A stretch of DNA of 33,799 bases from an uncultured Lentisphaeria bacterium. GTDB lineage: Bacteria; Fidelibacterota; UBA8477; JABMPR01. The notes under the pieces were generated by a model. The model was not told where the DNA came from. It ran no database searches and was given only the letters and a program-made list of their open reading frames with translations. Of the stretch, positions 1,616 to 33,799 are shown piece by piece. Position 1 is the first letter of the stretch. Each line of letters opens with the position of its first letter. The position numbers and the translations under genes are program-made. The stretch spans positions 1-33,799 of the forward strand of contig CAZVSF010000002.1 in the NCBI GenBank assembly GCA_964630195.1, given 5' to 3'.

Positions 1616-1651
1616 GTAAAAGTAGTTTCCAGGAAATTTAAAGAGGATAAA

Positions 1652-2986: not shown

Positions 2987-3004
2987 GGTAGGGGATGTAT
3001 TCAT

Positions 3005-4513: not shown

Positions 4514-4519
4514 ATAACC

Positions 4520-7470: not shown

Positions 7471-7480
7471 GAGAAATCTT

Positions 7481-9031: not shown

Positions 9032-9032
9032 G

Positions 9033-9851: not shown

Positions 9852-9852
9852 G

Positions 9853-11262
9853 ATGAAGCGATCTGAATTTTTAAAGCTCAGTCTTACGGCAACCGCAGCG
9901 CTGGTATCTACAAGTTATCTGGGTGGTTGTGCGCCTGCTTTTATTAAGAAGAGAAAGCCAAATATGTTGCTGATCATGACGGATCAACAGCACATCGATA
10001 CCATCGCCGGCATGGGTTGTGATCAGGTAAGGACACCCTGGTTCGATAAATATTGTACAGAGGGTGTTCACTTTAGACAGTCCTACAGTACCAACCCAGT
10101 TTGTTCACCTGCCCGGAGCTCAATTCTGACGGGACGGATGGCCAGTGAAACAGGTGTTTATGGGAACAACCTTCCTATCAGAAAGGAAGTCCCCAATGTA
10201 GGGCAGTGGTTTAGAAGCAAATCTGCATACGATACCTATTATGCCGGCAAGTGGCATTTGCCCAAGAGTTGGGTACAAAGCATACCCGGTTTTGATCTGC
10301 TAACACCAGGTGTCCAAAACCAGGGGAATATTGGCGATTCAATGGTCTCTATGGCCTGTGAGGGTTTCTTTCATAATCGCAAGCCATCTGATGACCCCTA
10401 TCTCATGGTAGCATCCCTTTTTCAACCTCACGATATCTGCCAATGGTACAGATTGAATATGAATAACCAGTCGACTTTGCAATATCCGCAGATAGAGAGT
10501 TTACTTCCGCCCCTGCCAAAAAATTTCGATAAAATACCTCTGGAATCCAGCGTGATAGAAGATTTGCGAAAGGCCCATGAACCTGTGAAGGGCGGATGGT
10601 CTGAATTGATGTGGCAGTACTATCTCTATGTCTATTACCGTCAGGTGGAAATGGTTGAAGCAGAAATCAGCAGGATTTTACAAGCTCTGGAAGATTCTGG
10701 GCAACGTGAAAATACCCTGGTAATGATTACTTCAGATCACGGAGAAGGAATGGCTGAGCATCGGATGATTCGTAAGAATTATCTCTATGAGGCCTCAGCC
10801 AAGGTCCCATTGATCGTTTCCTGGCCTGATCAAATGCAATCAAACCACGATGATAAAAGAAATCTAGTGAGTGGGATTGATCTGGTACCAACCATGTGTG
10901 ACTATGCGGAAATAGCGTCGCCAGGCAATATCCATAGCAGAAGTTTAAGACCGCTATTGGAAAATCGTGAGACCACCTGGCGCTCAAATTTAATAAGTGA
11001 AGTCAGCCATGGTGGTCATGGTGTAAAAGATCAGCTGGCCAGAATGGTACGGACTGATAAATACAAATATACGATTTATTCGAGAGATCGAGTGGAACAA
11101 CTTTTTGATCTTGAAAAAGATCCAGGCGAAATTGACAATCTGGCAACAAAATCAGGATATGGGCAAAATCTGTTAGAACACAGGAATTTGCTGAAAGCCT
11201 GGGAATCAAAACTGGAGCTAGATCCTGATTTACCAGACAATAAAAAATGGAAAAATGTATAA
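9853..11262 (+). CDS. Cys-type sulfatase (TDQQ-type N-terminus), lipoprotein
   Basis: 469-aa ORF. KRSEFLKL (degenerate Tat-like) plus lipobox LGGC. PNMLLIMTDQQHID...CSPARSSILTG. C-terminal QLFDLEKDPGEIDNLA. Confidence 0.88.
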   Translation: MKRSEFLKLSLTATAALVSTSYLGGCAPAFIKKRKPNMLLIMTDQQHIDTIAGMGCDQVRTPWFDKYCTEGVHFRQSYSTNPVCSPARSSILTGRMASETGVYGNNLPIRKEVPNVGQWFRSKSAYDTYYAGKWHLPKSWVQSIPGFDLLTPGVQNQGNIGDSMVSMACEGFFHNRKPSDDPYLMVASLFQPHDICQWYRLNMNNQSTLQYPQIESLLPPLPKNFDKIPLESSVIEDLRKAHEPVKGGWSELMWQYYLYVYYRQVEMVEAEISRILQALEDSGQRENTLVMITSDHGEGMAEHRMIRKNYLYEASAKVPLIVSWPDQMQSNHDDKRNLVSGIDLVPTMCDYAEIASPGNIHSRSLRPLLENRETTWRSNLISEVSHGGHGVKDQLARMVRTDKYKYTIYSRDRVEQLFDLEKDPGEIDNLATKSGYGQNLLEHRNLLKAWESKLELDPDLPDNKKWKNV

Positions 11263-11292
11263 CCGACGTTGACCATTATCGGGAGGAAGAAA

Positions 11293-12987
11293 TTGAAAGC
11301 TAAAGCTGTTTTAGTGATGACATTAGGTGCTATCGTTGCTCTTATAGGACTTGTGAGCTGTACACCAGGGGCCGTACCTGAGATTTCATTGACACCAGGG
11401 AACGTACCCGAGACCTCATGGACGCCAGAAATATTGACAAATAGTGACCTCTATCTACCGGATTTTTCAACTGCCGGCTATGCCTGGGGTGAAAAACCAT
11501 TACCGAATCTGGAGGCCACTCTTTTTGCAACTGATTTTGGGGTTATAGCAGATGATGGAGCAGATGATTCCGAAGCGCTGCAAGCTGCATTTAAAGCTGC
11601 TCATGAGACCGAGGGATCTGTGGTTCTAAGGCTACCTGCTGGAAAAATCATCTTATCTCAAATCCTGTACATCGAGCGGAGTAATTTTGTGCTTCAGGGG
11701 GCTGGGGATGGAGCAGGTGGAACCGTTATTTATATGCCTAAACCCTTGTCTGAACTTCCGGATCCTGATGAATTGTCTGAATTGCGGGAATATTTGATTG
11801 TAAATAACAAACGTCAGCGTGAAAAAGATCGGGGCGTTGATGAGCCATTTTCCCAATACGCCTGGTCAGCAGGATTTATCTGGGTTCAAAATCCGGAAAT
11901 ACAGGCAAAGATATATCTGAAAAAATATTATCAGGAACCAGAGGTATTGGCAACCACAATTTCAGGTAACAGGGGAGACCGAAGCTTCAAAGTCAATGAT
12001 GCCAGTCAGCTGAAGGCAGGGGACTTTGTCAGAATCAATTGGTTTAATCGAGAGGGTGAGGAGTCATCGTTGATTGATCATCTTTATGATGGTAAGGATG
12101 TGGTTGTTGGTCTCAGACATTGGGAAAACCCTGGAATCCCAATCATAAAGCAAGAAGTTACCATTGTGGCGGTTTCTGGGAATACGGTGACACTTAAAGA
12201 ACACTTACTTCATGATTTACGACCAGAATGGTTCCCAACCATCACCCGGTGGGATGCATTGTCACAGGTTGGCATTGAGAACCTCAAGTTTGAATTTCCC
12301 GATCCTGATACCACTTATATTGCCCACCATCTGGAAAAGGGGTATAACGCCATCTATCTCACAAACCTCACCCAATCCTGGCTGAAAAATGTTTCAGTAC
12401 ACAACGGTGATAGTGGAATACTCGCCGATGTGTGCTCAAATATAACCATAGAGGGTGGTGTATTTACCGGGAAGCTCAGTCACTATACCATTATGTTTGG
12501 TGATGTGACCAGCCTACTGGCAAAAAATGTGAAGGTCCATGGTCCCTGCAGGCATTCATTAAGTTTTAACACAGGATCTCGGGCCTGTGTATATACCCAT
12601 TGCGAAGTAACTATTGCACCATCTCTCGACCAGCATGGGGGTGCCAATCATCAGAATCTTTTTGATGATATCAGCATTGTTGAAAATAAGCCTGGCAGAA
12701 CCTTTTTCTATAAGGGTGGAGACGGATATTGGTCACCTACCCATGGTGCTTTTTCCACATTCTGGAATATTGACGTGACCTTTAGCTATCCGAATGAACC
12801 CAACGCTGTGATCGATCTTGAAGGGGTACCCAACGGCCCCTCAGCAAGACTTGTTGGTCTGCATGCCAATTATCCCATGAACATTTCTTATGGTCCGGAT
12901 GCCTATTTTGAAGGGATCAACAAGCCAAATTTAGCTGTGCCTTCACTTTATGAATATCAACTGGAGCAACGGCTGGCCAGCCAGTGA
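11293..12987 (+). CDS. Right-handed beta-helix (pectate-lyase-superfamily-3-like) glycan-degrading enzyme candidate, lipoprotein
   Basis: The ORF track starts at TTG 11269. The in-frame TTG at 11293 sits 6 nt after GGAGG (11282-11286) and yields a clean lipoprotein signal (M)KAKAVLVMTLGAIVALIGLVSC; ATG 11317 is another option. ATDFGVIADDGADDSEALQAAFKAAH is the typical N-terminal motif of pectate_lyase_3/GH28/GH55-like beta-helix proteins. Later beta-helix rungs include NGDSGILADVCSNITIEGG. Confidence 0.7.
   Translation: MKAKAVLVMTLGAIVALIGLVSCTPGAVPEISLTPGNVPETSWTPEILTNSDLYLPDFSTAGYAWGEKPLPNLEATLFATDFGVIADDGADDSEALQAAFKAAHETEGSVVLRLPAGKIILSQILYIERSNFVLQGAGDGAGGTVIYMPKPLSELPDPDELSELREYLIVNNKRQREKDRGVDEPFSQYAWSAGFIWVQNPEIQAKIYLKKYYQEPEVLATTISGNRGDRSFKVNDASQLKAGDFVRINWFNREGEESSLIDHLYDGKDVVVGLRHWENPGIPIIKQEVTIVAVSGNTVTLKEHLLHDLRPEWFPTITRWDALSQVGIENLKFEFPDPDTTYIAHHLEKGYNAIYLTNLTQSWLKNVSVHNGDSGILADVCSNITIEGGVFTGKLSHYTIMFGDVTSLLAKNVKVHGPCRHSLSFNTGSRACVYTHCEVTIAPSLDQHGGANHQNLFDDISIVENKPGRTFFYKGGDGYWSPTHGAFSTFWNIDVTFSYPNEPNAVIDLEGVPNGPSARLVGLHANYPMNISYGPDAYFEGINKPNLAVPSLYEYQLEQRLASQ
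11362..11430 (+). repeat. Tandem 30-nt repeat (2.3 copies) encoding TPG(A/N)VPE(I/T)S(L/W) linker just after the lipobox Cys
   Basis: Unit 1 is 11362-11391 (acaccaggggccgtacctgagatttcattg). Unit 2 is 11392-11421 (acaccagggaacgtacccgagacctcatgg). A partial unit follows at 11422-11430. Confidence 0.7.
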
Positions 12988-13061
12988 CAGGCAGCGTCTA
13001 GCTCAATCAATCGATTGTTTTACGACTATAGCGATTTGATGGAAGTCCCTCCAAGCTCATT

Positions 13062-15266
13062 ATGAAGATATTCCATGGGACAAGATTGTTAATTAGCCTG
13101 GGTTGCCTTACAGCTCTCGTCTCTTGTAAGTCCGAAACTCAGCCATTTCACATTCACAAGGGAATGATGCTATCTGATCAGCAACTGGTCGAGGCGTTGG
13201 ATCGATCTAATCCTGAGGGTCTGAAGCTATACGAATCACTACGTCAGCTAGAGGATCCAACAACACGAAATGAACAGCTGTCAGATTATTTCAAGAACAA
13301 GCTGGCCATTAGATATTATTTCAATTGGAGAAACTTTGATTCCAGATTTAAGACGTTTCAAAGTGAGTTGCCAGATGAGCAAAAATATCATCAAAAGCAG
13401 GGTGAGCTTCATCTTGGCCTTTACCGGGCAAACACGACCTGGGATTGGCCTCGAAATGATCAGAACGGCAACCCGATCAGCGCCTATCAATTTCGTCACC
13501 TGGCCAGACAGCAAGATGTTGAATCCCACATATTTACTGGATTCTACGAACAGAATATCAAAGCAAAGAAGCAATACTTCGTAGATCAGGTAAGTAGTCT
13601 CATGGAAGCCTACCAGGTGGGAGCGTATGAAGATCGGAATCATGGAGTGTTTGCAACGTTTATCGCAGGCAGGCGCGTTTACACCTGGCTGTTTATTCAC
13701 AACGCCCTCCTGAGCCGACCTGAGTACTCCACGGCGGATCAATTGCTATTGATCAAGACCTTTCTGGCACATGGCGCAGATCTGGCTGAAAGATGCCAGA
13801 CATATGAACCAGGAAACCATCACACCCGCGGATTGGTCGCTCTCTATGAAATTGCTGCATTATTCTCTGAATTTACGGATACCAAAGACTGGCGTGAGTT
13901 AGCAGTCGATGGTTTACTCTGGCATATGGATAACGAGATTGGAAGTGATGGATTTCAGTTTGAGCGATCGGTTTTCTATCACATGGGGGACATTGAGAAT
14001 TATTTCAGGGTCGCCAGATTAGCAAGTAACTGCGGATATGATTTACCAGAAAAATATTGGACCCGACTTAAGAGCATGTTTAACAGTCTGGAACTATTAA
14101 GTCAGGATAATGGGAAGGTCCCTCCGCTCCAGGACTGTAGTGGTCCCTATGGGGATGAAATATCTATTTCCAGCGCCATGATCATGGGCTTCGACGCTTT
14201 CAGAGAATCAGCGTGGATGCCGCTTCTGGGAAACGAACTACCCAGGAATGGATTTTGGCTCCTGAGTGATGATCTGGTAAAGGAGTTCCACGACATTGAA
14301 GGGGGTAAACCTGAGCAAAAACAATCCTCGGTATTAAGGGATGCTGGATACTACATCATGCGGTCTTATAAAACAGGACACTTGAACCAGATCATTATTT
14401 CAGCCGGTTTGTCGGAAATAAAACCGGATCATCAGCAGGGTGACATGTTGGGATTTACGCTCTACTCTGAGAAGCAATCCAGGCTGCCAAATTATGAGGT
14501 CCAGTACAATGATCCGGAGTACAGGGATTTCAAAAATTCACTGGCTAAAAATGTGGCAATTGTCGATGGCATGCTTCAGGGTAAGTATTGGACAGGCAAA
14601 CCTGGAGGGACGGGATTTGCCACGTGGGGTTGCTTGCCTGAGCCAGAAGTTTTGAATTGGATGAGCAATGATAATTATGACTATTTCGCTGGAACCCATG
14701 ATGGTTATGACTCAATTGGTGTGGATTATTTACGAGAGATTATATATCTCAAGCCATCTGTTTTGGTCGTGGCAGATCATTTCAGATCGTCCACTCCCCA
14801 TGATTATTCCCAGATATGGCAGGGGGATTTTTCCAGAAGCGATGATGAAAATGCATTTACCCGTGTTTTTGAGGATGGGTATCATCTTGATTTAAATATT
14901 GCCAATGAGGCTGGGGTGAATCTTTCCAGTGGAATACTTGGAAGCAAGGCTCACACAGTGTTTACCGTTAATGGGAAATCAAATTATGATATAATCACCA
15001 TCCTTGGATTGAACCTCCAGGGAATTGCAGGCAGCGATGGCAAAATTTCAGCAAGGGATCCCAGCCAGGAATGGATGGTTCAACTCGATGCAGTGAAGCA
15101 CGAAATAAAGCTGAGTAAATCAGCGAGTGATGAAATGTTCCTTCTCAAGAATTTATTTATTGATGAAGACACAGGTGATAGAACCAGTGACATTTCAACA
15201 ATTTTAACAACAAGGGATGGTGATAATTCAACATTATTATCCCGGATCAATCAGTATGAGCAATAG
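13062..15266 (+). CDS. Heparinase II/III-like polysaccharide lyase, lipoprotein
   Basis: 734-aa ORF. Lipoprotein signal ...LTALVSC. The size and two-part layout fit the alpha/alpha-toroid plus beta-sandwich lyases (PL12/15/17/21). EPGNHHTRGL is an Asn-His motif. KPDHQQGDMLGFTLY resembles the GHxHxDxLSFxL motif of the Hepar_II_III C-domain (from memory). Confidence 0.72.
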   Translation: MKIFHGTRLLISLGCLTALVSCKSETQPFHIHKGMMLSDQQLVEALDRSNPEGLKLYESLRQLEDPTTRNEQLSDYFKNKLAIRYYFNWRNFDSRFKTFQSELPDEQKYHQKQGELHLGLYRANTTWDWPRNDQNGNPISAYQFRHLARQQDVESHIFTGFYEQNIKAKKQYFVDQVSSLMEAYQVGAYEDRNHGVFATFIAGRRVYTWLFIHNALLSRPEYSTADQLLLIKTFLAHGADLAERCQTYEPGNHHTRGLVALYEIAALFSEFTDTKDWRELAVDGLLWHMDNEIGSDGFQFERSVFYHMGDIENYFRVARLASNCGYDLPEKYWTRLKSMFNSLELLSQDNGKVPPLQDCSGPYGDEISISSAMIMGFDAFRESAWMPLLGNELPRNGFWLLSDDLVKEFHDIEGGKPEQKQSSVLRDAGYYIMRSYKTGHLNQIIISAGLSEIKPDHQQGDMLGFTLYSEKQSRLPNYEVQYNDPEYRDFKNSLAKNVAIVDGMLQGKYWTGKPGGTGFATWGCLPEPEVLNWMSNDNYDYFAGTHDGYDSIGVDYLREIIYLKPSVLVVADHFRSSTPHDYSQIWQGDFSRSDDENAFTRVFEDGYHLDLNIANEAGVNLSSGILGSKAHTVFTVNGKSNYDIITILGLNLQGIAGSDGKISARDPSQEWMVQLDAVKHEIKLSKSASDEMFLLKNLFIDEDTGDRTSDISTILTTRDGDNSTLLSRINQYEQ

Positions 15267-15299
15267 TAAATTATTGTGAAAAGAGAAAAAGGAACAGTT

Positions 15300-16505
15300 A
15301 TGGTTACCGCGAAGCGATTGAGATTCATTTTGATGGGAATAATTTTATTGAGTGTATTGATTGGTTGTGCAGCAGAATTGTCAGTGGGCTTTGGAACCGA
15401 TGTGATTAAAACACCAGTCGATGTCGCTTCCATTGATCGCCAGCGAATTATCGAATCAGCTGATAGCTACTTAAAGGAAATGCCTGTTACTGTTACTGCG
15501 GCAACCTGTGAGCGCAGTCTGGGTGGTCCCCACGATTTTTACTCAGAAGGAGACTACTGGTGGCCAAATCCAGACAATCCTCATGGTCCATACATGCAGC
15601 GCGATGGCATGAGCAATCCCGATAATTTTGTCGATCATCGTCAGGCCATGCGGCGTATGAGCATCCAGGTAGCCAACCTGGCCGCAGCCTACAAGGTCAC
15701 TGGGGAAAAGAAGTACGCAGATCATGCTGCCAAACATTTGATCGCCTGGTTTGTAAATGAAGACACAAAAATGAATCCGCATATGCGTTTTGCTCAGGCA
15801 ATTATGAATGTTGTCCCTGGCCGCGGTGTTGGTCTTATTGATGGCATTCACCTCGTCGAACCAGCTCGAGCCGTGACCATCATTCAGGACTCAGGATCGT
15901 TGACAAAATCAGAATTGAAAAGCATCAAAAACTGGTACGCGACCTTTCTGACATGGATAACAACCCATGAATATGGGATTGATGAGCGCGAGAGAAAGAA
16001 CAACCATGGTACCTGCTGGGTCATGCAGGCTGCCGAATTTGCCAGACTAACCGGGAATGAAGAGATTTTGGATTATTGTCGTGATCGTTATAAAACCGTC
16101 CTGCTTCCGAACCAGATGTCTGAAGATGGCGGATTCTTCATGGAGCTCAGGCGTACCAAACCCTATGGCTATAGTCTATTCAATATTGATGCCATGGCCA
16201 CGGTATGTCATATCCTGTCAACACCAGAAGATAACCTATGGACCTTCACCCTGGAAGATGGCAGGGGAATCGCCAGGGGTATGGAGTTTATCGTCCCATT
16301 TATTGCTGACAAATCTGCCTGGACTCTGCCAACTGATGTCATGTATTGGGATCAATGGCCAGTAAGACAACCCAGTCTACTATTCGCTGGTATGTCGCTG
16401 GGCAATCAGGCGTATATCGATTTATGGAAAACATTGAAACCACTGCCTGAAACAGAGGAAGGTTTAAGAAATTTCCCCATCCGTGAACCCGTCTTGTGGT
16501 TTTAA
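15300..16505 (+). CDS. Alginate-lyase-domain (PL5/AlgL-like) polysaccharide lyase paralog, lipoprotein
   Basis: The ORF track starts at GTG 15276. The in-frame ATG at 15300 gives MVTAKRLRFILMGIILLSVLIGC (lipobox). GGPHDFYSEGDYWWPNPDNPHGPYMQRDGMSNPD, WFVNEDTKMNPHM and KNNHGTCW are colinear with ORF 6238..7470. Confidence 0.72.
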   Translation: MVTAKRLRFILMGIILLSVLIGCAAELSVGFGTDVIKTPVDVASIDRQRIIESADSYLKEMPVTVTAATCERSLGGPHDFYSEGDYWWPNPDNPHGPYMQRDGMSNPDNFVDHRQAMRRMSIQVANLAAAYKVTGEKKYADHAAKHLIAWFVNEDTKMNPHMRFAQAIMNVVPGRGVGLIDGIHLVEPARAVTIIQDSGSLTKSELKSIKNWYATFLTWITTHEYGIDERERKNNHGTCWVMQAAEFARLTGNEEILDYCRDRYKTVLLPNQMSEDGGFFMELRRTKPYGYSLFNIDAMATVCHILSTPEDNLWTFTLEDGRGIARGMEFIVPFIADKSAWTLPTDVMYWDQWPVRQPSLLFAGMSLGNQAYIDLWKTLKPLPETEEGLRNFPIREPVLWF

Positions 16506-16630
16506 TTCTGGATCACCGTTAAAAACCACAGGGCTGATACGTTTATAGGTGACATGCCTGGTAGAGTTGTTACATTATTTTTGTTTCGTTAATCAATCGG
16601 TCCAGGTGACCATTCATATAGGTAATTGTT

Positions 16631-17926
16631 ATGCAAACTGAACGTCTTCCCGCCTTCCATGTCCTGGCCAAACCCATTGGCCCCATCTGTAATCTGGACT
16701 GCAGCTACTGCTTCTATCTGGAAAAGGATCAACTCTATCCTGAAGTGAAGAATTTCAAAATGGAACCTGCTGTCCTTGAAACCTTTATTCGACAAAAAAT
16801 TGAAGGTCATAGCGTGGATACGGTCCATTTCACCTGGCAGGGTGGTGAACCTACCTTGTTAGGTGTTGACTATTTTAGGGAAGTCGTGCGTTTGCAGGAG
16901 AAGTACGCTGGGGGTAGGCGCATTGAAAATGGCTTTCAGACCAATGGCGTCCTGTTGAATGACGAGTGGTGTGAATTTTTCAAAAAGCACAACTTCCTGA
17001 TTGGGTTATCCATCGATGGTCCCGCAGAACTTCACGATATTTATCGGCTCAATAAGGGGGGCAGTGGGAGTTTCGACCAGGTCATGGACGGGCTGGCTTT
17101 GCTGAAAAAACATGGTGTCGAATACAATACCCTGACGGTGGTGAATGCCGGTAACCAGGCGCATCCAGATGAGATTTATGATTTTCTCAAATCCATAGGA
17201 AGTACCTATTGGCAGTTCATCCCCATTGTGGAACGGCTGCGCAAAGAAGATGGGATGTTGGCAGCCCCAGACGAAACGGGTGAGATACCCATGAGTGAAT
17301 GGTCTGTAGAGCCTGAGGCTTATGGTCATTTTCTGGAACACATTTTTCAACGGTGGGTCAGGGAAGATGTGGGACAGATATTTGTCCAACATTTTGAATC
17401 AGCTCTGGCCAATGAGTTGGAAATGCCAGCTGGTGTTTGCGTCTGGAATTCCACCTGTGGTTCGGCTCTGGCAATCGAGCATAATGGTGATGTCTTTCCC
17501 TGTGATCATTACGTTTTCCCACACTATAAATTGGGCAATATTAAAGAAATTCCTCTCGTAGAGATGATACATGATCCCATTCAAATTGAATTTGGGAATG
17601 ATAAGAAAGACAAGTTGCCACAAATATGTCTCGATTGCGAAGTTCTGGATCTCTGTCATGGTGAATGTCCCAAACATCGCTTCATGACGGGGGCGGATGG
17701 GGAGGTAGGACTCAATTATCTTTGTGACGGATATAAACATTTCTTCACAACGATCCGGCCCGAATTGGGTGTTATCGCAGAGTTGTTCGAATTGGGGAAA
17801 CCTGCAGAGAACATCAAGGAATGGATGAAGGAAAAGGATTTGGGGTTTCCTTCACTGAATGCGAAGCGAAATGAGCCCTGTCCCTGTGGCAGTGGTAAAA
17901 AATTCAAAGCATGTTGCGCCATCTAG
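16631..17926 (+). CDS. Anaerobic sulfatase-maturating enzyme (radical SAM/SPASM) with C-terminal SEC-C zinc-binding motif
   Basis: 431-aa ORF with no signal peptide. Radical-SAM CNLDCSYC (CX3CX2C, nt 16688-16711). GGEPTL motif. SPASM-type cysteines CVWNSTCGS...PCDHY and CLDCEVLDLCHGEC (CX2CX5CX3C). The last 18 aa, NEPCPCGSGKKFKACCAI (nt 17870-17923), match the SecA C-terminal SEC-C motif. Confidence 0.9.
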   Translation: MQTERLPAFHVLAKPIGPICNLDCSYCFYLEKDQLYPEVKNFKMEPAVLETFIRQKIEGHSVDTVHFTWQGGEPTLLGVDYFREVVRLQEKYAGGRRIENGFQTNGVLLNDEWCEFFKKHNFLIGLSIDGPAELHDIYRLNKGGSGSFDQVMDGLALLKKHGVEYNTLTVVNAGNQAHPDEIYDFLKSIGSTYWQFIPIVERLRKEDGMLAAPDETGEIPMSEWSVEPEAYGHFLEHIFQRWVREDVGQIFVQHFESALANELEMPAGVCVWNSTCGSALAIEHNGDVFPCDHYVFPHYKLGNIKEIPLVEMIHDPIQIEFGNDKKDKLPQICLDCEVLDLCHGECPKHRFMTGADGEVGLNYLCDGYKHFFTTIRPELGVIAELFELGKPAENIKEWMKEKDLGFPSLNAKRNEPCPCGSGKKFKACCAI

Positions 17927-18191: not shown

Positions 18192-18216
18192 GAATTTGAA
18201 AAAATCGGGAAGTATC

Positions 18217-18231
18217 GAATACATTGTATTC
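18217..18231. promoter_or_regulatory. Perfect 15-bp palindrome GAATACA-T-TGTATTC in the TBDR leader
   Basis: GAATACA at 18217-18223, centre T at 18224, TGTATTC at 18225-18231. Verified by reverse-complementing by hand. Confidence 0.3.
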
Positions 18232-18312
18232 TTTAGTATATGGCTGGAAGCTTTACTGTGGCGCAAAAATTCGTCATACATCATTCATATTTATGAAAAA
18301 GGGAGTACCTGC

Positions 18313-26097: not shown

Positions 26098-27579
26098 ATG
26101 AAGAAACTGCAACTATCCCTTTTATCGCTACTTATTGCCGTAACGTCGTTCGCCCAGATCCCCTCACTCATAGAAGTTGGTGCGGATAACTGGGAAGCAT
26201 GGTATCAGGGTGATTTTAAGAATGTCCTGGGGTTTGTCGCCCAGGGTGCAGACACGGTATTGCTGACCTCATCCGGTTTTAGTTATACGACGGATGATAC
26301 TTTACCACTGGTGATAAATAGCCCGGTTGTCATCATGGCAGCCCCTGGACTGGCTGAAAAACCAATACTGTCGCATACCAACCCAGACACAAGTTCTTCC
26401 AGGGAGATCTTTCGTATTCTGGAAAGTGTAGAATTTAATGGTATTCATTTTAATGGTGCCCCGGATCAACCAAGAGGTGTGAAGTATGCCTTGCGGTATG
26501 GGGATTTTGAAGATGAGGCAACCGGACAGATCAATCTGGCTGAATCAGATATCAATATCACTCTAAAAGATTGTGATTTTGAGAATTTCCACTCTGAAGG
26601 TGATCAGGATAAACAGGGCAATGTCTTGTATTTTTTGAGGCCTCTCGATGTGACCAATGATCATATCCATGCGCATAATGTCATCATTGAAGGCTGTACT
26701 TTTACCGATATCGGTGATGAGGCTATCCGGATTTCCGAAGGTGAAAAATACCCCTTTGGCAGCATTGGGACTGTGGCCTATGATACATTGATCGTCAGGA
26801 ATTGTACTTTCGATGATGTGGATGCTGAATGTGTGCGTATCTATGGAGACACGGACACCAGCTTTGTTGGACCAACTTATGTGGATGGTCTAACTCTCAT
26901 CGAGAAGGTGACCGCAGTGAATTGTGCGCCACGCTTCATCTATGCCAAAAACTATCGGCAGACCATCCTTCGCGATGTGTTGGTCGCTAATGGACGCGAA
27001 CCCTCGATCAATCGCCAGGATAGAGGTGACTATGTCATGCACGTTCAGTTGAGCACATCCTATATCGCGAATGTCGACACATTTGATTTGACATTTACGA
27101 TGTATCAGGAAAATCGTGTTGTGGGTGGGAAGGGGGCTGATGTGGATGAAGCAACCGTGTATGGGTATGATCCCCAATTCACGGATGCCGCTAATGGAAA
27201 TTACGAGGTGAATTCACCCTACCTGTATAGTCGTGGTAGCGATGGAGGTTTCATTGGTGACCCACGTTGGGCTACGGCACCTCCACCCGTGGGAACAGCT
27301 CCAGAGACCAAACCTGTCGCTTTTACGCTGGAACAAAGCTATCCAAATCCATTCAATCCGAGTACCAGGATCGATTATACAATAGAACGACCCGATTTCA
27401 CCACGCTGGTTGTTTACAATGTGCTGGGTCAGGTTGTTTCTACACTCAAAGATGAGTTCATGTGGGAAGGTTCCTACAGTGTTGTATTTGATGCATCAGA
27501 ACTGGCGGGAGGAATTTATTTTTATGAATTGCGCCAGGGTGAGAATGCTCAAATTAATAAAATGATATTACTTAAATAG
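26098..27579 (+). CDS. Secreted right-handed beta-helix protein (single module) with T9SS C-terminal sorting domain
   Basis: 493-aa ORF. Signal ...IAVTSFAQ. Beta-helix rungs IIEGCTFTDIGDEAIRISEG and LIVRNCTFDDVDAECVRIYG. Cap motif DPQFTDAANGNYEV...GSDGGFIGDPRWAT is shared with the modules of the next gene. CTD (nt 27319-27576): LEQSYPNPFNPSTRIDY...GGIYFYELRQG...NKMILLK, Por_Secre_tail type. Confidence 0.78.
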   Translation: MKKLQLSLLSLLIAVTSFAQIPSLIEVGADNWEAWYQGDFKNVLGFVAQGADTVLLTSSGFSYTTDDTLPLVINSPVVIMAAPGLAEKPILSHTNPDTSSSREIFRILESVEFNGIHFNGAPDQPRGVKYALRYGDFEDEATGQINLAESDINITLKDCDFENFHSEGDQDKQGNVLYFLRPLDVTNDHIHAHNVIIEGCTFTDIGDEAIRISEGEKYPFGSIGTVAYDTLIVRNCTFDDVDAECVRIYGDTDTSFVGPTYVDGLTLIEKVTAVNCAPRFIYAKNYRQTILRDVLVANGREPSINRQDRGDYVMHVQLSTSYIANVDTFDLTFTMYQENRVVGGKGADVDEATVYGYDPQFTDAANGNYEVNSPYLYSRGSDGGFIGDPRWATAPPPVGTAPETKPVAFTLEQSYPNPFNPSTRIDYTIERPDFTTLVVYNVLGQVVSTLKDEFMWEGSYSVVFDASELAGGIYFYELRQGENAQINKMILLK

Positions 27580-27594
27580 GAAACGGGAGGTAAC

Positions 27595-30500
27595 ATGAAA
27601 AAACTACTCATTGCCGTATGTCTGCTGACATTGGCATTTGGTACGCTGCAAGCTGCAGTTATTCCAGTAGTTAATGATTCAGATTCCTCTCTGGTTACAG
27701 CATATAACAATGCCGTTGCCGGGGATATTCTGGAATTAACTGTGGATGGTGTGTATTTATCCAGGGCGCAGATCGTCATCGATAAGGATATCACCATTCG
27801 TGCAGCCGCAGGTCTGGCAAATCCACCAGTTTACAAATATGTAGGCACTTCAACTGGCGCCTATATGTTTAAAGGTGTCGGATCACCCCGCATCAACATA
27901 TCTGGTATTGAATTCGACGGTGACGGACAAGCTGAAGGCGGCGCTGCATTGGCCAAATACTTTTTTATTGTTCGCAACGATGACACAACCGCCACACTGG
28001 ATCTCTTTATTGATAATGTCTATGTACATGATTATAACGAGAAGATGATCAAGTTTTATGGTGATGCCGGTGTGGATTCCATGGTCGTGACCAACTCCAT
28101 GTTCGATACGACACCTAAAGAGGGAATTACCCTCTATTCAGGTTCATCAAGCGATCCAATGGCAAAATATGCCTACGTTGAGATCTCAAACACCACGATA
28201 GCCAATACTGGTAGGGAAGCTGTCAAGAACCAGACAAGCCCAGGTGGTACAGTTGTTCTTGATAGGTTGACACTTGACGGTTGTGGTAATAGCGGCAACA
28301 AATCCATGATTTATTTCCGCGATGTTGATGATGTTACTGTCAAGAATAGCATCTTTTATAATAGCACAAATGCTGATGCTGGTGAAGAGTTTGCTGACAT
28401 GGCCACCTCAAACAACGTGTTTCATAACAATGTTGTCTGGGATGTTGTGAACACAGATGTAAGCAATGCTGTGGTCACGGATACCCTTCATGTCGATCCA
28501 ATGTTCTTGGACGCTGCAGCAGGTGACTATACAGTTCTCAATATGGATCTCTACACATTCGCTGATGATGGTGGATCTGTAGGCGATTCATACTGGATCC
28601 CCAATCGCGAACCTGCTGTTTATCAGATCTCGAGTGCTGATACCAATGCACTGGCTGACGCTGTGAACGATGCTATCGCCGGTGATGCTTTTGTACTTGT
28701 GGATGAAGGTCCATACCTGAACACAAGTCAGATGGTTATCGAAGAAGATATCGCCATCATGGCCTGGGACCTTTTACCCACGAAACCTGTTGTGAAATAT
28801 GTAGGTACTTCAACTGGTGCTTATATGTTCAAGGGTGTTGGTTCACCACATATCATGATTCATGGTATCGAGTTTGATGGTGACGGACAAGCTGAAGGTG
28901 GCGCTGCTCTGGCCAAATACTTCTTTATCGTTCGGAATGATGACCCGACTGCCACACTGGATCTCTTTATTGATGATGTCTATGTACATGATTACAACGA
29001 AAAGATGATCAAGTTCTATGGTGATGCAGGTGTTGATTCAATGGTTGTAACCAATTCAATATTCGATACTGGTCCTAAAGAAGGAATCACGCTCTACTCA
29101 GGATCATCATCTGATCCAGCTGCGGTCTATAGCTATGTAGAGATCTCAAATACAACTATTACCAACACTGGCAGGGAAGCTATCAAGAACCAGACAAGTA
29201 CTGGTGGTACAGTTGTTCTAGATAGATTGACCATTGATGGTTGTGGAAACAGTGGCAACAAATCAATGATCTATTTCCGTGATGCTGATGATGTTACTGT
29301 GAAAAACAGCATTTTCTCAAACAGCACCAACGCTGATGCTGGTGAAGAGTTTGCCGATATGGCAACATCAAACAATGCATTCCATAACAATGTTGTTTGG
29401 GATGTAGTGAACACTGAAGTCAGCAATGCTGTTGTGACTGATACGCTGCATGCTGATCCAATGTATGCAGATGCTGCTAATGGTGATTTCACCATCGCCA
29501 ACGCCGACCTATTCACATTTGCTGATGATGGCGGGGCAGTAGGAGATGGACGCTGGGCACCAGAAATGGTTGTTGAAGTCACTGAAGTGACAAATGATCT
29601 TCCAAATGCATTGGCAGATGCTGTTGACGCCTCTGAACCTGGTGACATTCTCGTATTGGTTTCAGAAGGTGAATATGTCAGTGATGATGATATTGAAGTT
29701 CCTCATGATCTGACCATTATGGGTTCATATGAATTGCCAACCAGACCTGTAGTCAAATACAATGGTGGCTCAAGTTCATATTTCTTAAGACCTGAAGCCA
29801 ATGTACGTCTTGCTGTTTCAAATCTTGAATTTGATGGTAACAGACCTGACGGCAGTCTCGTGAAATACTTTGTCCGTATCGACAACTCAGATCCTACGGC
29901 TCTGACGAGTCTGATCGTAGACAATGTGCTTGCACATGATTTTGCTGACAAGGTTGTGAAAGCCTATGGCAACTCTGGTATCGATTCAGTATTGATAACC
30001 AATAGTGTTTTTCATAGTGGCGGCTCAGAGGGTATCTGTCTGTATCAAGGATCCTCTTCTGCAGCGCCTACGCCCATCAATTATGCTGAGATCTCGAACT
30101 GTACACTTTATGACATCGAGCGTGAAGCCATCAAATCTGAGCTCTATGCTGATTCTCAGATCCTCATAGATCGTGTTACAGTCTACAATTGTGGTAGCGC
30201 TCAAAATAAGCCAATGCTGCGCTTCCGTGCTGTAACAAATGTTGAAGTCAAGAACAGCATCTTTGCACACAATGATAATACAGACACAGGTGAAGATTTT
30301 GCCGATTTCGGTGAAGCCGCCAACCTGTTCCATCACAATGCTGTCTGGGACATGCTGAATTATGAAACGGGTTCAGCTACGCCTACTGATACGGTACAGG
30401 TTGACCCAATGTTTGCTGATGCAGCCAATGCTGATTTCACAATTCCTGAAGATTCACCCCTGTACTCCTTTGCTGATGATGGTGGATCCATTGGTGATAC

Positions 30501-33084
30501 ACGTTGGGCACCACCCCTGGGTGTCTACTTCCTGAATACCTTTACCGTTGGTGAGGGTGAGGTTGTACTCGATCCTCCTGGTGGCGTTTATGGTGAAGGA
30601 GAATCAGTTACATTGACCGCTGTACCTGCAGAATACTGGGCTTTCGATCACTGGGATCCAGTGATTGTCTTCCCACCAACAAACCCCGTTGCTACAATCA
30701 CAATGACAGAATCAAAAAATGTAACCGCTCATTTCGTTCCAACGCTGACAAACTACGCGATCGAGACTGCCGTGATCGGTTATGGTCATATTGAAGAGAC
30801 TGTTGGACATCAGTATCCACTCGATGCATACATCGAAGGAGATACGCTGATGTTGACTGCAGTTGCAGATTCTGTTAACTGGGAATTCGCCTACTGGGTG
30901 AATGCAGAGCAGGATAGTATCGCTGACGGTGATATCTATTACCTCATCGATGCTGATACAACCTTTACAGCCATGTTCAGATCTACGCTGACACAGGCTA
31001 TGTTGACAACCATGACAGTTGGTATGGGTAATGTTAGTGTCAGCCCAATGCCAGTTCCCGGGTTTGATACCTACGATGCTGGAACTGAGCTCACTGTTAC
31101 TGCCACAGCCCCATTGGGTTGGGAATTTGCTGGCTGGAGTGGCGATGTAACATCAACTGATAATCCGCTTGCAATTACGCTTGCAGCAGACATGTCCGTG
31201 ACAGCCACATTCACAGAGATCAGTCACCCAGATGGTATTCTTGCCATCGGCTCAGACTGGGATCTGTTAGATGCGCTTGAGTACGCCAAGAACAACGCTC
31301 AAGTTGATCGCATCCTGCTGACTGATATTGGTCCTTATGTTCCATCTGAAGATCGTCGTTCAGAAGGAAAAATGCCCGCGCTCGAAATTACCCAGACGGT
31401 TGAAATTCTGGGTGCCGATACGCTGAGCGCAAAGCCTCTGGTCATGGGATACACCTCCTCCACTGGCGGTACCAGCTCAGAAGGTTTATTCCGACTGAGA
31501 ATGGGTGGAAATTTAACCCTGAAAAATCTGGCTATCGATGGTTGGATGGAAGGTGCTACCGTACAGGCCAAGTATCTCATCCGTGCGGATGATTCAGATA
31601 ATATGGGCTATCATACTTCATTTAGAGCTTTCGGTGTTGATTTTAAATCAACAAAAGAGGTTTTTTATAAGAACTATCCTTCTGCTTATGTCGATTCGTT
31701 GATATTTGACGGTTGTCTGGTTGAGGATATTGGTAAGGAAGCTTTCTTTTTCAACTCGGTCGGTGATGCTGATTTGATTCAGATCACGAACAGCACATTC
31801 AAACGGGTTGGTCGGGAAGTTATCTACATGAAGAATATGGATCCCGTGGTTGTTTTAGACCACCTGACAATTGAGAATTGTGGGATTGGTTATGGAACAG
31901 AAGGTGACAAGTTCGGTGCTGTCAGGCTTCAGGATGGAACCACCAATGTGACATTCACCAATTCGATCATTGTCAATGTTACCAATTCCATAAATGGCTA
32001 TGGTTTGAGAGTAGCAGGTGAGAACTCATATGTAGATAATCTCCTGCTGCATAATACCAATGATAATCTTGATATGCGCGATGGTGCAACACTTGGTCCA
32101 GATGTTTATTTCTATGATCCCATGTTCGCAGACATAGGCGCTGAAGATTACACATTATTGGATGCCTCTTTGGCTTATCATCTACAGAATGATGATTCGC
32201 CGGCCATCGGTGATACTCGTTGGGCAACTTCAACGAATGTTACAGATTACAAAGCTCTCGATCTCATGGTCGCAGGCAATGGTTGGGTTGAACTCAGCCC
32301 AGCTCCTATGGCCAAGTTCTATCTACCCAATGAAGTGGTGACATTAACAGCTTTGCCAGATTCACTGGCTCAGTTTGATGGTTATTCTGGTGATCTGGTT
32401 TCCTCAGATCTTGTTTCCACAGTGACCATGGATACTGACAAGATGATCTATGCTGATTTCAGCATCCCAATGTATACCCTCACGCTAAATGCCCGCATGG
32501 GTTATCAGATATTCGCTGGTAACTTTGATCCAGATACAGACTCTCTGGATGTTGCAGGCAACTTTAACGACTGGAACGGTAGTCCAGAGAGCTGGTTGTC
32601 ACCAACCGGCGCCGATTCGATCTGGTCCGTAACCTTCGAAACCCCGGCTCTCGGTGATTTACACTTTGAGTTTAAACTCAGAATCAACGGGAACTGGGAT
32701 ACCTCTGAATTTCCAGCTGGCGGACCAAATCGCGTATTGGATGTGACAGGGGATACAGAGCTTACAGTCTGGTACAATGATGAAGATTACACCACTGCTG
32801 TGGATGATAACTTCCTGCCAGATGTGTATGCCCTGAACCAGAACTATCCAAACCCCTTTAACCCAAGCACGACCATCTCTTTCGATCTGATCGAGACCGC
32901 CGATACACGCTTGGTTCTCTATGATGTACGGGGTAGGGAAGTGGAACGGATCGTGAACCAGAGTATGGCCCCCGGCCGTTATACAGTGACCTTTGACGGT
33001 TCTGCATACGCCAGTGGTGTCTACTTCTATCGTCTAACCAGCGGTGAGTTCTCAGACGTTAAGAAACTCATGTTGCTGAAATAA
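27595..33084 (+). CDS. Giant (1829 aa) multi-module T9SS cargo protein: 4 beta-helix modules, 4 InlB-B-type repeats, CBM-like domain, T9SS CTD
   Basis: Signal MKKLLIAVCLLTLAFGTLQA. Three tandem 320-aa beta-helix modules are followed by three InlB-B-repeat-like domains (about nt 30521-31220, e.g. FTVGEGEVVLDPPGGVYGEGESVTLTAVPAEYWAFDHWD). A fourth beta-helix module lies at about 31231-32230. A fourth B-repeat lies at 32248-32463. A CBM20/48-like segment LDVAGNFNDWNG...FEFKLRINGNWD lies at 32470-32784. CTD at 32821-33081: NQNYPNPFNPSTTISF...SGVYFYRLTSG...KKLMLLK. Confidence 0.85.
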   Translation: MKKLLIAVCLLTLAFGTLQAAVIPVVNDSDSSLVTAYNNAVAGDILELTVDGVYLSRAQIVIDKDITIRAAAGLANPPVYKYVGTSTGAYMFKGVGSPRINISGIEFDGDGQAEGGAALAKYFFIVRNDDTTATLDLFIDNVYVHDYNEKMIKFYGDAGVDSMVVTNSMFDTTPKEGITLYSGSSSDPMAKYAYVEISNTTIANTGREAVKNQTSPGGTVVLDRLTLDGCGNSGNKSMIYFRDVDDVTVKNSIFYNSTNADAGEEFADMATSNNVFHNNVVWDVVNTDVSNAVVTDTLHVDPMFLDAAAGDYTVLNMDLYTFADDGGSVGDSYWIPNREPAVYQISSADTNALADAVNDAIAGDAFVLVDEGPYLNTSQMVIEEDIAIMAWDLLPTKPVVKYVGTSTGAYMFKGVGSPHIMIHGIEFDGDGQAEGGAALAKYFFIVRNDDPTATLDLFIDDVYVHDYNEKMIKFYGDAGVDSMVVTNSIFDTGPKEGITLYSGSSSDPAAVYSYVEISNTTITNTGREAIKNQTSTGGTVVLDRLTIDGCGNSGNKSMIYFRDADDVTVKNSIFSNSTNADAGEEFADMATSNNAFHNNVVWDVVNTEVSNAVVTDTLHADPMYADAANGDFTIANADLFTFADDGGAVGDGRWAPEMVVEVTEVTNDLPNALADAVDASEPGDILVLVSEGEYVSDDDIEVPHDLTIMGSYELPTRPVVKYNGGSSSYFLRPEANVRLAVSNLEFDGNRPDGSLVKYFVRIDNSDPTALTSLIVDNVLAHDFADKVVKAYGNSGIDSVLITNSVFHSGGSEGICLYQGSSSAAPTPINYAEISNCTLYDIEREAIKSELYADSQILIDRVTVYNCGSAQNKPMLRFRAVTNVEVKNSIFAHNDNTDTGEDFADFGEAANLFHHNAVWDMLNYETGSATPTDTVQVDPMFADAANADFTIPEDSPLYSFADDGGSIGDTRWAPPLGVYFLNTFTVGEGEVVLDPPGGVYGEGESVTLTAVPAEYWAFDHWDPVIVFPPTNPVATITMTESKNVTAHFVPTLTNYAIETAVIGYGHIEETVGHQYPLDAYIEGDTLMLTAVADSVNWEFAYWVNAEQDSIADGDIYYLIDADTTFTAMFRSTLTQAMLTTMTVGMGNVSVSPMPVPGFDTYDAGTELTVTATAPLGWEFAGWSGDVTSTDNPLAITLAADMSVTATFTEISHPDGILAIGSDWDLLDALEYAKNNAQVDRILLTDIGPYVPSEDRRSEGKMPALEITQTVEILGADTLSAKPLVMGYTSSTGGTSSEGLFRLRMGGNLTLKNLAIDGWMEGATVQAKYLIRADDSDNMGYHTSFRAFGVDFKSTKEVFYKNYPSAYVDSLIFDGCLVEDIGKEAFFFNSVGDADLIQITNSTFKRVGREVIYMKNMDPVVVLDHLTIENCGIGYGTEGDKFGAVRLQDGTTNVTFTNSIIVNVTNSINGYGLRVAGENSYVDNLLLHNTNDNLDMRDGATLGPDVYFYDPMFADIGAEDYTLLDASLAYHLQNDDSPAIGDTRWATSTNVTDYKALDLMVAGNGWVELSPAPMAKFYLPNEVVTLTALPDSLAQFDGYSGDLVSSDLVSTVTMDTDKMIYADFSIPMYTLTLNARMGYQIFAGNFDPDTDSLDVAGNFNDWNGSPESWLSPTGADSIWSVTFETPALGDLHFEFKLRINGNWDTSEFPAGGPNRVLDVTGDTELTVWYNDEDYTTAVDDNFLPDVYALNQNYPNPFNPSTTISFDLIETADTRLVLYDVRGREVERIVNQSMAPGRYTVTFDGSAYASGVYFYRLTSGEFSDVKKLMLLK
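27655..30534 (+). repeat. Three in-frame tandem units of exactly 960 bp (320 aa) inside the giant gene; units 1 and 2 near-identical in protein, unit 3 diverged
   Basis: Landmark tatgtagg(c/t)acttcaactgg occurs at 27839 and 28799, an offset of 960. The GD of (A/P)GD(I/A)(L/F)(E/V)L lies at aa 43, 363 and 683. Long identical nucleotide runs occur in units 1 and 2 (ggtgacggacaagctgaagg, gccacactggatctctttattgat, gctgatgctggtgaagagtttgc). Confidence 0.85.
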
Positions 33085-33100
33085 AAAGAAGGAAATTGAT

Positions 33101-33137
33101 CTGCGGGGTGATTCGTCACCCCGCAGACCTCCTTTTT
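33101..33137 (+). terminator. Rho-independent-type terminator hairpin after the giant gene
   Basis: Perfect 11-bp stem CTGCGGGGTGA (33101-33111) paired with TCACCCCGCAG (33116-33126), with loop TTCG. It is followed by acctccTTTTT (T-run 33133-33137). Confidence 0.7.
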
Positions 33138-33799
33138 ATGAAATTTATTCTAAACATATTAACCCTTATAATTTCAGTCACATTAGTGGCTGAAACTGTT
33201 CCTGTGAGCAGTGCGATTGATATTCATAATGCCATGGATGGCTTAAATCCAGGCGATACCCTCCTCATGGAGGACGGTATCTGGGCTGATCAACGTATAT
33301 CTTTTCACGCAAACGGGACGGAAGCTCAAGCCATTGTTCTCATCCCTGAAACGCCAGGGCAAGTTGTCCTCTCAGGATTCAGCACGCTTGAATTCTCAGG
33401 TTCCTATCTTGAGATCAATGGATTGAATTTTACCGATGGCTACTCCACCGGAGATGCGGTGATCGAATTCCGTAGAAATGGTGTGAGAGCCAATCACTGT
33501 CGATTGACCAATACTTCTATTTTTAATTACAACCCCACCAGCATTGGCACCAATTATAAGTGGGTGTCCATGTATGGTCAGAATAATCGGGTGGACCACT
33601 GCTATTTTGCAGGTAAAAATCATGATGCCGCCACCTTTGTGGTCTGGCTCAGCGAAGCGCAGGACAGAGACAATCATCATATCATCGAATACAATCATTT
33701 TGGATACAGACCCGAGCTGGGATTCAATGGTGGCGAGACCATCAGAATCGGAACCAGTACCTGGTCAATGACCAATTCCCGCACCATCGTACGACATAA
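33138..33799 (+). CDS. PL6-family polysaccharide lyase (chondroitinase B / poly-mannuronate lyase-like), 5' part only, runs off the window
   Basis: Not in the ORF track because no stop is reached. My hand translation from ATG 33138 is open to the window end (220 aa). MKFILNILTLIISVTLVA signal. PGDTLLMEDGIWADQRISF, NHCRLTNTSIFNYN, NNRVDHCYFAGKN and FNGGETIRIGTSTWS are colinear with PL6/chondroitinase-B-type motifs as I recall them. The final taa (33797-33799) is out of frame. Confidence 0.78.
   Translation, partial: MKFILNILTLIISVTLVAETVPVSSAIDIHNAMDGLNPGDTLLMEDGIWADQRISFHANGTEAQAIVLIPETPGQVVLSGFSTLEFSGSYLEINGLNFTDGYSTGDAVIEFRRNGVRANHCRLTNTSIFNYNPTSIGTNYKWVSMYGQNNRVDHCYFAGKNHDAATFVVWLSEAQDRDNHHIIEYNHFGYRPELGFNGGETIRIGTSTWSMTNSRTIVRH

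Follow-up and report, generated by a model that had tools for sequence, protein, structure and literature searches.

In a 33,799-nt stretch of bacterial DNA (contig CAZVSF010000002.1, positions 1 to 33,799, forward strand; hereafter, the window), an uninterrupted open reading frame (ORF) that begins with ATG (27595..33084, + strand) encodes a protein of 1829 amino acids (aa) with four beta-helix modules. We propose that this 1829-aa protein is probably a non-catalytic, multivalent polyuronate-binding protein of the cell surface, similar in role to the surface glycan-binding proteins (SGBPs). The proposal builds on direct observations of the protein's architecture, of the fold and homology of its modules, of the lack of catalytic features of polysaccharide lyase family 6 (PL6), of a conserved gene context, and of purifying selection.

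Domain architecture and module fold

The 1829-aa protein opens with a Sec signal peptide that can be read directly from the translation (aa 1-19/20, MKKLLIAVCLLTLAFGTLQA, cut before A; 27595..27651, +). The signal peptide is followed by three beta-helix modules of ~318 aa each in tandem: M1 (aa 20-336; 27652..28602, +), M2 (aa 337-656; 28603..29562, +), and M3 (aa 657-973; 29563..30513, +). The remainder of the protein consists of three InlB-B-type repeats, B1 to B3, recognized by the Pfam model Flg_new_2 (30514-30762, 30763-31014, and 31015-31260, +), a diverged beta-helix module M4, identified by its similarity to M1-M3 (aa 1226-1546; 31270..32232, +), a fourth B-repeat, B4 (aa 1550-1640; 32242..32514, +), a beta-sandwich domain with the motif GNFNDWNG...NGNWD that resembles carbohydrate-binding modules (CBMs) and the Pfam family X25_BaPul_like (aa 1641-1745; 32515..32829, +), and a type-A C-terminal sorting domain (CTD) of the type IX secretion system (T9SS), which together with the stop codon occupies 32845..33084 (+). 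This is the arrangement given in the original prediction, and it is borne out by BLASTP, Pfam, and TIGR04183.

The modules differ in how similar they are to one another. M1 and M2 are 78% identical (BLASTP of module vs module, E 0), M3 is 43-45% identical to M1 or M2 (E 1e-88 to 1e-98), and M4 is 28% identical to M1-M3 (E 1e-18 to 1e-23). These values indicate similarity that far exceeds chance. In an alignment of five modules (A1), which also includes the module of the neighboring 493-aa protein, an opening cap (GD...L..G.Y) and a closing cap (DP.F.D....GD.RW) are evident, with slightly degenerate versions of both caps in M4 and in the 493-aa protein. The two caps had already been noticed in the initial reading of the sequence; besides being visible in A1, they stand out as the best-conserved columns when 268 modules of the family are compared. 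The modules are also very acidic, with a pI of 4.05-4.4 and 43-52 D+E residues vs 16-25 K+R residues.

The smaller domains were recognized with different degrees of support. Two of the four B-repeats, B1 (37 bits, E 3.3e-9) and B3 (48 bits, E 1.3e-12), score above the Flg_new_2 (PF18998) cutoff of 23.6 bits, and the other two, B2 (15.8 bits, E 0.014) and B4 (22.9 bits, E 8.4e-5), score under it. The domain after B4 had been described as CBM20/48-like. The CBM20 and CBM48 models have no match in the 1829-aa protein, and the domain has a borderline Pfam match to X25_BaPul_like at aa ~1654-1730 (27.3 bits vs a cutoff of 27). A search with this domain alone returned no meaningful sequence match in the PDB, and we regard it as a borderline CBM-like domain of the X25 type. 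The C-terminal region scores 38.5 bits with TIGR04183 (cutoff of 23) and 37.4 bits with PF18962 (cutoff of 27), which places it among the T9SS type-A CTDs.

As a whole, the 1829-aa protein matches the Pfam families DUF5123 (PF17161; 144.7 bits, in four stretches) and DUF4957 (PF16318; 73.3 bits), for which the gathering cutoffs are 35.1 and 30.8 bits, respectively. Examined one at a time, M1 (43.6 bits), M2 (55.8 bits), and M3 (56.8 bits) each pass the DUF5123 cutoff, and the DUF4957 scores are 30.5 bits for M1 and 33.4 bits for M3. M4 alone falls below both cutoffs (29.9 bits for DUF5123 and 29.2 bits for DUF4957). When the five-module profile was compared with all PDB sequences, we found a full-module match to residues 434-744 of the alginate lyase BcAlyPL6 (7DMK; E 1e-29), as well as matches to the equivalent C-terminal regions of 7O77/7O7T and 8BWK.

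The structural model of M3 points in the same direction. The AF2 model, which was built from a 23-sequence alignment, consists of stacked short strands (pLDDT 90, pTM 0.90), and the Foldseek search of the PDB with this model ranks 7DMK first (E 4e-14, TMq 0.87, rmsd 2.9 Å). It is followed by Patl3640, AlyGC, and 8BWK, all of which are two-domain PL6 alginate lyases. PL31 6KFN (TMq 0.59), RbmB, Pel9A, AlgE4/AlgE6, GH28, and phage tailspikes occupy lower ranks, with TMq values of 0.3-0.6 and ~12% identity, and represent generic beta-helix similarity. The predicted model and its Foldseek matches confirm the earlier assignment of the modules to right-handed beta-helices.

In those family representatives in which the module is located at residues ~490-810, Pfam detects Chondroitinas_B, then DUF4957 and DUF5123, and then Por_Secre_tail. 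Because of this order, we identify the second helix of two-domain PL6 lyases as a DUF4957/DUF5123 module. The modules of the 1829-aa protein, in turn, appear to be free-standing copies of the accessory C-terminal helix of PL6. A confident match to an already characterized CAZy family, which the original prediction had named as a refuting result, was obtained by half: the modules match PL6, but they match its accessory helix and not its catalytic domain.

Search for catalytic features in the modules

The Pfam model of the PL6 catalytic domain, Chondroitinas_B (PF14592), has no match in the whole 1829-aa protein or in any single module, and the PL6 motifs NGGE, SxKS, and RHG are absent from both the 1829-aa and the 493-aa proteins. 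The motifs are present in the PL6 orthologs encoded in four related loci (L001-L003 and L007, described below) as N197, K236, R257, and H258, with a spacing equal to that of BoPL6 residues N201, K240, R261, and H262, which represent the Ca2+-site Asn and the catalytic Lys, Arg, and His. In a profile-profile comparison of the 268 modules with PL6 N-terminal domains (hhalign), only 43 columns of the N-terminal cap align, with a probability of 51%.

Conservation across the 268 modules is limited as well. The columns conserved in at least 60% of the modules comprise only the two caps and the Asn/Thr ladder of the beta-helix turns, and no charged residue is conserved in >60% of the modules. Partial conservation was found for K101-Y102 (~50-60% of the modules), E156 (~50%), E188 (~42%), and R/K/Y191 (~60%). 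In alignments to the PL6 C-terminal helices, the PL6 active-site loop (DEST) corresponds to a gap in M1-M4. The C-terminal domain of BoPL6 (BoPL6-CTD) is non-catalytic and binds polyguluronate with a Kd,app of ~1.4 mM, and its conserved DEST loop shapes the N-terminal active site, with the loop Glu being essential for the complex (PMC12992946). Taken together, these observations make a good, if not conclusive, case for modules that bind their substrate and do not cleave it.

Predicted binding to polyuronates and alternative functions

Given the homology of the modules and the gene context, we infer the binding itself, as well as its ligand, its avidity, and the retention of the protein at the surface. 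In the mechanism that we propose, the 1829-aa protein would be exported by Sec and then by the T9SS through its type-A CTD, and would stay on the cell surface, attached in the usual CTD-dependent way or held by the PorV/PorQ-like barrel encoded in the locus. M1-M3 would form a near-contiguous array, with linkers of ~10 residues and helices of ~60 Å each (as estimated from a BoPL6-CTD figure), and, together with M4 on its stalk of B-repeats, could turn a weak single-site affinity into strong avidity for a long polyuronate chain. The captured alginate- or glucuronan-like chain, possibly sulfated, would be offered to the co-secreted PL6 lyase, which would cut it, and to the adjacent TonB receptor cassette. 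Resulting oligomers would enter by the TonB-dependent receptor, with desulfation and degradation taking place in the periplasm. M4, the 493-aa neighbor, and the X25-like domain probably contribute other epitope specificities.

A related protein from Bacteroides offers a precedent for such a function. BT4112 is described as an SGBP that binds homogalacturonan (PMC8002723), and the gene range BT4109-4114 includes a "DUF5123 domain-containing protein" (PMC10434189). The link of the modules to both pectate and alginate loci, which we present below, parallels the situation of BT4112.

Several considerations weigh against a polyuronate-binding role. Foremost among them is that the modules are strongly acidic (pI ~4.1), contrary to what simple electrostatic binding of a polyanion predicts; with modules this acidic, the binding of polyanions would need Ca2+/cation bridges or a local basic/aromatic ladder. 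The partly conserved set of K101-Y102, E156, E188, and residue 191 may be a binding site, but may equally well be a catalytic site of a subfamily. To our knowledge, no ligand has been reported for any tandem DUF5123 protein. BT4112 is presumably a DUF5123 protein, as judged from a gene-range table. In addition, cargo with a type-A CTD is sometimes released, and not always retained by the cell.

Alternatively, the 1829-aa protein could be a general surface adhesin or spacer, which attaches the cell to algal or marine-snow particles without feeding a specific transporter. Such a function would suit a very long, repetitive, and acidic T9SS-exported protein with B-repeats, which are typical of surface adhesins, and would agree with the faster divergence of M1 and M2 than of M3 between strains. 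However, the linkage to the TonB receptor cassette and to CAZymes that match the substrate is tight and is conserved in three phyla, which makes a role detached from uptake unlikely. An adhesin would also overlap with the polyuronate binder that we favor, as both are binding functions.

We find it rather improbable that the modules are catalytically active and represent a new family of beta-helix lyases, hydrolases, or epimerases, which would make the 1829-aa protein a four-headed processive enzyme. The beta-helix fold is typical of PL1/3/6/9/31, GH28, and the AlgE epimerases, the Foldseek matches include PL31, RbmB, Pel9A, and AlgE4/AlgE6, and the semi-conserved K-Y, E, E, and R-K set lies on successive coils. 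AlgE epimerases likewise hold several beta-helix A-modules per chain. However, the best and only full-length match of the modules is to a PL6 domain shown to be non-catalytic, and the enzymes at lower Foldseek ranks are only generic matches with ~12% identity. Neither a Pfam match to a catalytic domain, nor the PL6 motifs, nor a charged residue conserved in >60% of the 268 modules was found, and a dedicated PL6 lyase gene adjoins the gene of the 1829-aa protein. Between an enzyme and a binding scaffold, the two functions initially considered for this protein, the homology to the PL6 accessory helix and the absence of catalytic motifs favor the scaffold and disfavor the enzyme.

Finally, it is very improbable that the modules associate in trans with PL6 catalytic domains and shape their specificity: although the N-terminal domain of BoPL6 (BoPL6-NTD) and BoPL6-CTD associate in trans with a Kd of 6.9 uM, restoring exo-polyG activity (PMC12992946), a PL6 lyase gene adjoins, and the 493-aa neighbor has an insertion where the PL6 active-site loop would be, M1-M4 are entirely without this loop, whose Glu is essential for the NTD-CTD complex of BoPL6, and the adjoining PL6 appears to bear a C-terminal helix of its own.

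Orthologs, family spread, and evolution of the modules

In a scan of species-representative genomes, we found orthologs of the 1829-aa protein in three metagenome-assembled genomes of Candidatus Neomarinimicrobiota (L001-L003), whose M3 is 73-80% identical to that of the window. A more distant ortholog is encoded in L007. In the NCBI taxonomy, Candidatus Neomarinimicrobiota is filed as Fidelibacterota within the FCB group. The order of genes is identical in L001 and L002: a TonB receptor, a ~770-aa protein, a PorV-like protein (~320 aa), a FadL-like protein (512 aa), the 493-aa protein, and the 1829/1832-aa protein are followed by a 901-aa PL6, a protein of the PF05426 alginate-lyase family, a GntR/FCD regulator, and an SDR. 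L003 begins inside the large gene, and the order is visible there only for the genes downstream.

The four-module layout is kept in the orthologs from L001, L002, and L007, down to ~55-60% identity, and the CTD is 92-95% identical in the L001/L002 orthologs and 77% identical in the L007 ortholog. The L007 ortholog (11507..16687; 1726 aa), whose modules are 55-63% identical to those of the window, is without the X25-like domain. Because the domain is missing from this ortholog, we consider it an optional add-on.

To place the modules within their family, we searched 1.84 billion cluster representatives exhaustively with HMMER and the module profile. At E <= 1e-3, this yielded 1021 proteins, and at E <= 1e-30, the number was 115; a word-indexed homolog search with M3 alone gave just 2 matches. 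Among the best 150 representatives, one full module is present in 61 proteins, two in 54, three in 23, four in 5, and five in 1. At least half of these 150 proteins end in a T9SS-CTD-like tail, as detected by a loose match to the end motif, and many of them share a design in which n modules are followed by ~245-257 aa of B-repeats, another module, a B-repeat, and the CTD. Proteins with 3-4 modules include those from Melioribacteraceae (MCF8261170.1, 1738 aa), Roseimarinus sediminis (WP_429412589.1, 1645 aa), and Marinoscillum (MEQ8472890.1, 1734 aa), all three annotated solely as "DUF5123 domain-containing protein"; four-module proteins occur in each of these three taxa. The presence of four helices in one chain had been considered unusual. 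Because tandem modules are common among the 150 best representatives, with two or more modules in 89 of them, and the design recurs, four modules are the upper end of a common tandem theme and not a unique arrangement, and the view of them as unusual is upheld only in part.

Inside each of four orthologs, M1 and M2 are 78-87% identical, and between genomes, the identity is 55-68% for M1-M1 and 63-94% for M3-M3 comparisons. M1 and M2 also share a 300-nt DNA repeat that is 83% identical. Given that the likeness of M1 to M2 within genes exceeds that of M1 to M1 across genomes, we conclude that the two modules have been homogenized (concerted evolution), either by gene conversion or by repeated re-duplication. 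Concerted evolution of M1 and M2 is consistent with both of them binding the same ligand. Between orthologs, dN/dS ranges from 0.04 to 0.25 in all regions of the protein, with dS saturated, so that the values show purifying selection only in a qualitative way. Because dN/dS is well below 1 in every region, no module appears to be decaying.

Genes adjoining the 1829-aa gene

The gene that precedes the 1829-aa gene encodes the 493-aa protein (26098..27579, +), in which a single diverged module (aa 20-394) is followed by a T9SS CTD (BLASTP, TIGR04183/Pfam). Its module is 23-28% identical to M1-M4 (BLASTP, E 1e-7 to 1e-11), in agreement with the predicted total of five modules across two adjacent genes. 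The orthologs of the 493-aa protein are 57-86% identical, and a PDB sequence search with the protein alone gave only spurious ankyrin matches. At aa ~248-262, there is an insertion (YGDTDTSFVGPT) where PL6 C-terminal helices have a loop that reaches the active site. The corresponding loop of the PL6 helices reads YGGDTNPFS or YRGGNDEST. The 493-aa protein could be a free-standing partner that resembles the PL6 C-terminal helix.

On the 3' side, the 1829-aa gene is followed by a strong terminator-like hairpin (33100..33127, +), which consists of a 12-pair stem with 8 G-C pairs and a subsequent T-run. The hairpin lies between the 1829-aa gene and the gene of a two-domain PL6 lyase, which begins 54 nt 3' of the 1829-aa gene and runs past the end of the window (33138..33799, +; first 220 aa, 662 nt). 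The PL6 lyase was recognized by its orthologs: the part of it encoded in the window shares 72-88% identity with proteins of 901 and 915 aa from L001-L003 and L007. In the L001 ortholog (13569..16274), Pfam detects Chondroitinas_B (336 bits), Por_Secre_tail, and DUF5123 at 23.5 bits, which is below the cutoff of 35.1; the A1 module profile matches the PL6 orthologs at aa 493-799 (E 1e-23 to 5e-30). Judged from these orthologs, the adjoining PL6 has a C-terminal helix of its own, of the DUF5123 type, and a T9SS CTD. According to a 2026 paper, all two-domain PL6 enzymes in CAZy come from Pseudomonadota or Bacteroidota. The two-domain PL6 with a T9SS CTD in the window and in L001 belongs to Fidelibacterota, outside these two phyla.

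Upstream locus and receptor cassette

Upstream of the 493-aa gene, four genes on the + strand form a receptor cassette. They encode a TonB-dependent receptor with a CarboxypepD_reg N-terminus (18196-21243), a conserved 766-aa protein with a T9SS-CTD-like end (21262-23562), a barrel of the PorV/PorQ family (23573-24538; 150 bits vs a cutoff of 90), and a FadL-like barrel (24550-26088). The locus had been interpreted as a polysaccharide utilization locus (PUL). This setting was not recovered: the SusD family has no match in any of the 20 window ORFs of at least 150 aa, and the receptor has no SusC-type match in NCBIfam. With no SusC/SusD pair found, the locus is not a canonical PUL of Bacteroidota.

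The cassette is preceded by a dense run of genes (44..17926, +). Besides six sulfatases, their products include two PF05426 lyases, a heparinase II/III-like protein, a radical SAM/SPASM enzyme, and a beta-helix protein of 572 aa that contains DUF4955. No PDB sequence match was found for the 572-aa protein, and no Pfam match for the 284-aa ORF at 8997..9851. In our reading, the radical SAM/SPASM enzyme is of the anaerobic sulfatase-maturase type. Among solved structures, 3NFV and 8BDQ are closest to the PF05426 lyases; we take both to be PL38-type alginate/glucuronan lyases. Considering gene context only, the locus probably targets a polyuronide that resembles alginate or glucuronan and may be sulfated. 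The sulfated polyuronide named as the target in the original prediction fits to this extent, through the sulfatases, the maturase-type radical SAM enzyme, and the alginate/glucuronan-type lyases.

The 766-aa protein has no Pfam match and >660 homologs, and its conservation is far higher than that of the DUF5123 proteins. The 120 homologs listed are 56-85% identical and include proteins from Marinimicrobia, Fidelibacterota, KSB1, Calditrichia, and Melioribacteraceae. In every locus examined, a gene of the 766-aa type is flanked by the TonB receptor gene on one side and by the PorV-like gene on the other. We considered PorZ as a candidate identity, since the length fits, there is a weak C-terminal PorZ match, and the next gene is PorQ-like. 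Its AF2 model (pLDDT 68), however, matches in Foldseek only C-terminal FN3/CTD Ig domains (TMq <=0.14), with PorZ 5M11 ranked 40th. Because the matches of the model are restricted to the C-terminal Ig domains, a PorZ-like fold is not supported. The N-terminal ~550 aa of the model have no fold match in the PDB (Foldseek).

The same order of cassette genes precedes DUF5123/CTD proteins in Fidelibacterota and KSB1. In a KSB1 genome, the cassette and a single-module DUF5123/CTD protein are located beside a GH2 gene, and another alginate locus of Fidelibacterota combines the cassette with a single-module DUF5123/CTD protein and two PL6 genes. A pectin locus of Melioribacteraceae contains GH28, PL10-type Pec_lyase, GH88, and pectinesterase genes with a DUF5123/CTD protein and a cassette; here, the cassette (receptor, ~750-aa protein, and PorV-like protein) has no FadL-like gene and is found on the downstream side of the DUF5123 gene. 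At L004, L005, and L007, the SusD-less cassette is seen with T9SS cargo beside differing sets of CAZymes. In the searchable literature, we found no description of a PorV/TonB/FadL cassette or of SusD-less T9SS loci in Ignavibacteria, and nothing on alginate lyases in Marinimicrobia.

More tentatively, we conjecture that tandem DUF4957/DUF5123 helices may constitute a widespread and unrecognized polyuronate-binding class, of which the C-terminal helix of PL6 would be one fused instance. In FCB phyla other than Bacteroidota, these helices might act inside a distinct, SusD-less glycan-capture machine composed of a TonB receptor, the highly conserved ~770-aa protein, whose N-terminal fold is unmatched, a dedicated PorV/PorQ-like barrel that tethers T9SS cargo, both binding proteins and lyase, beside the transporter, and a FadL-like barrel.

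Marinimicrobia (SAR406) are abundant in the ocean and for the most part uncultured, and what they contribute to the turnover of polysaccharides is poorly defined. The locus suggests that they may capture and degrade acidic algal polymers by means of T9SS-exported proteins and a SusD-less receptor cassette. If the predicted binding is true, DUF4957/DUF5123 would acquire a functional role, that of a new CBM-like polyuronate family, the reason for the second helix in PL6 enzymes would be explained, and there would be a sequence marker for SusD-independent glycan uptake across several FCB phyla. The more novel lead, in our view, is the surrounding cassette with its highly conserved 766-aa protein.

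Comparison with known systems

The closest known counterparts of the modules are the C-terminal domains of PL6 lyases (BcAlyPL6 7DMK, BoPL6, AlyGC 5GKD, and Patl3640 7O77), which have the same right-handed beta-helix domain. In contrast to these enzymes, the modules described here are not fused to a PL6 catalytic N-terminal domain and are without the DEST-type loop. They are also present in four copies per chain, accompanied by B-repeats, an X25-like domain, and a T9SS CTD, in a host from Fidelibacterota. The main predicted binder of the locus multiplies a module that had until now appeared only as a Pfam DUF or as the silent half of PL6 lyases.

The DUF4957/DUF5123 SGBPs of Bacteroides, such as BT4112, belong to the same Pfam families and are likewise found beside a TonB receptor in a polyuronate locus, and both the BT4112-type proteins and the 1829-aa protein are presumed to be surface-located substrate binders. 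The Bacteroides proteins are lipoproteins of ~500 aa with one helix and are encoded in SusC/SusD PULs, whereas the 1829-aa protein has four helices, is a T9SS cargo, and accompanies a SusD-less cassette with PorV-like and FadL-like barrels. The multi-module DUF5123 proteins in databases have the same design of modules, B-repeats, a further module, and a CTD, but their hosts belong to other phyla or classes, and their tail domains are different.

Another parallel is provided by the AlgE mannuronan C5-epimerases, in which several beta-helix modules are also contained in one secreted alginate-acting protein. The similarity of fold to AlgE is generic only (TMq 0.37-0.44), and the A-modules of AlgE are catalytic, alternate with R-modules, and exit by a type I system. 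Binding helices of the type found in DUF5123 proteins and in the C-terminal domains of PL6 are thus the known part of the system that we describe, and their multiplication and attachment to the T9SS, in a SusD-less cassette of Marinimicrobia, is the new part.

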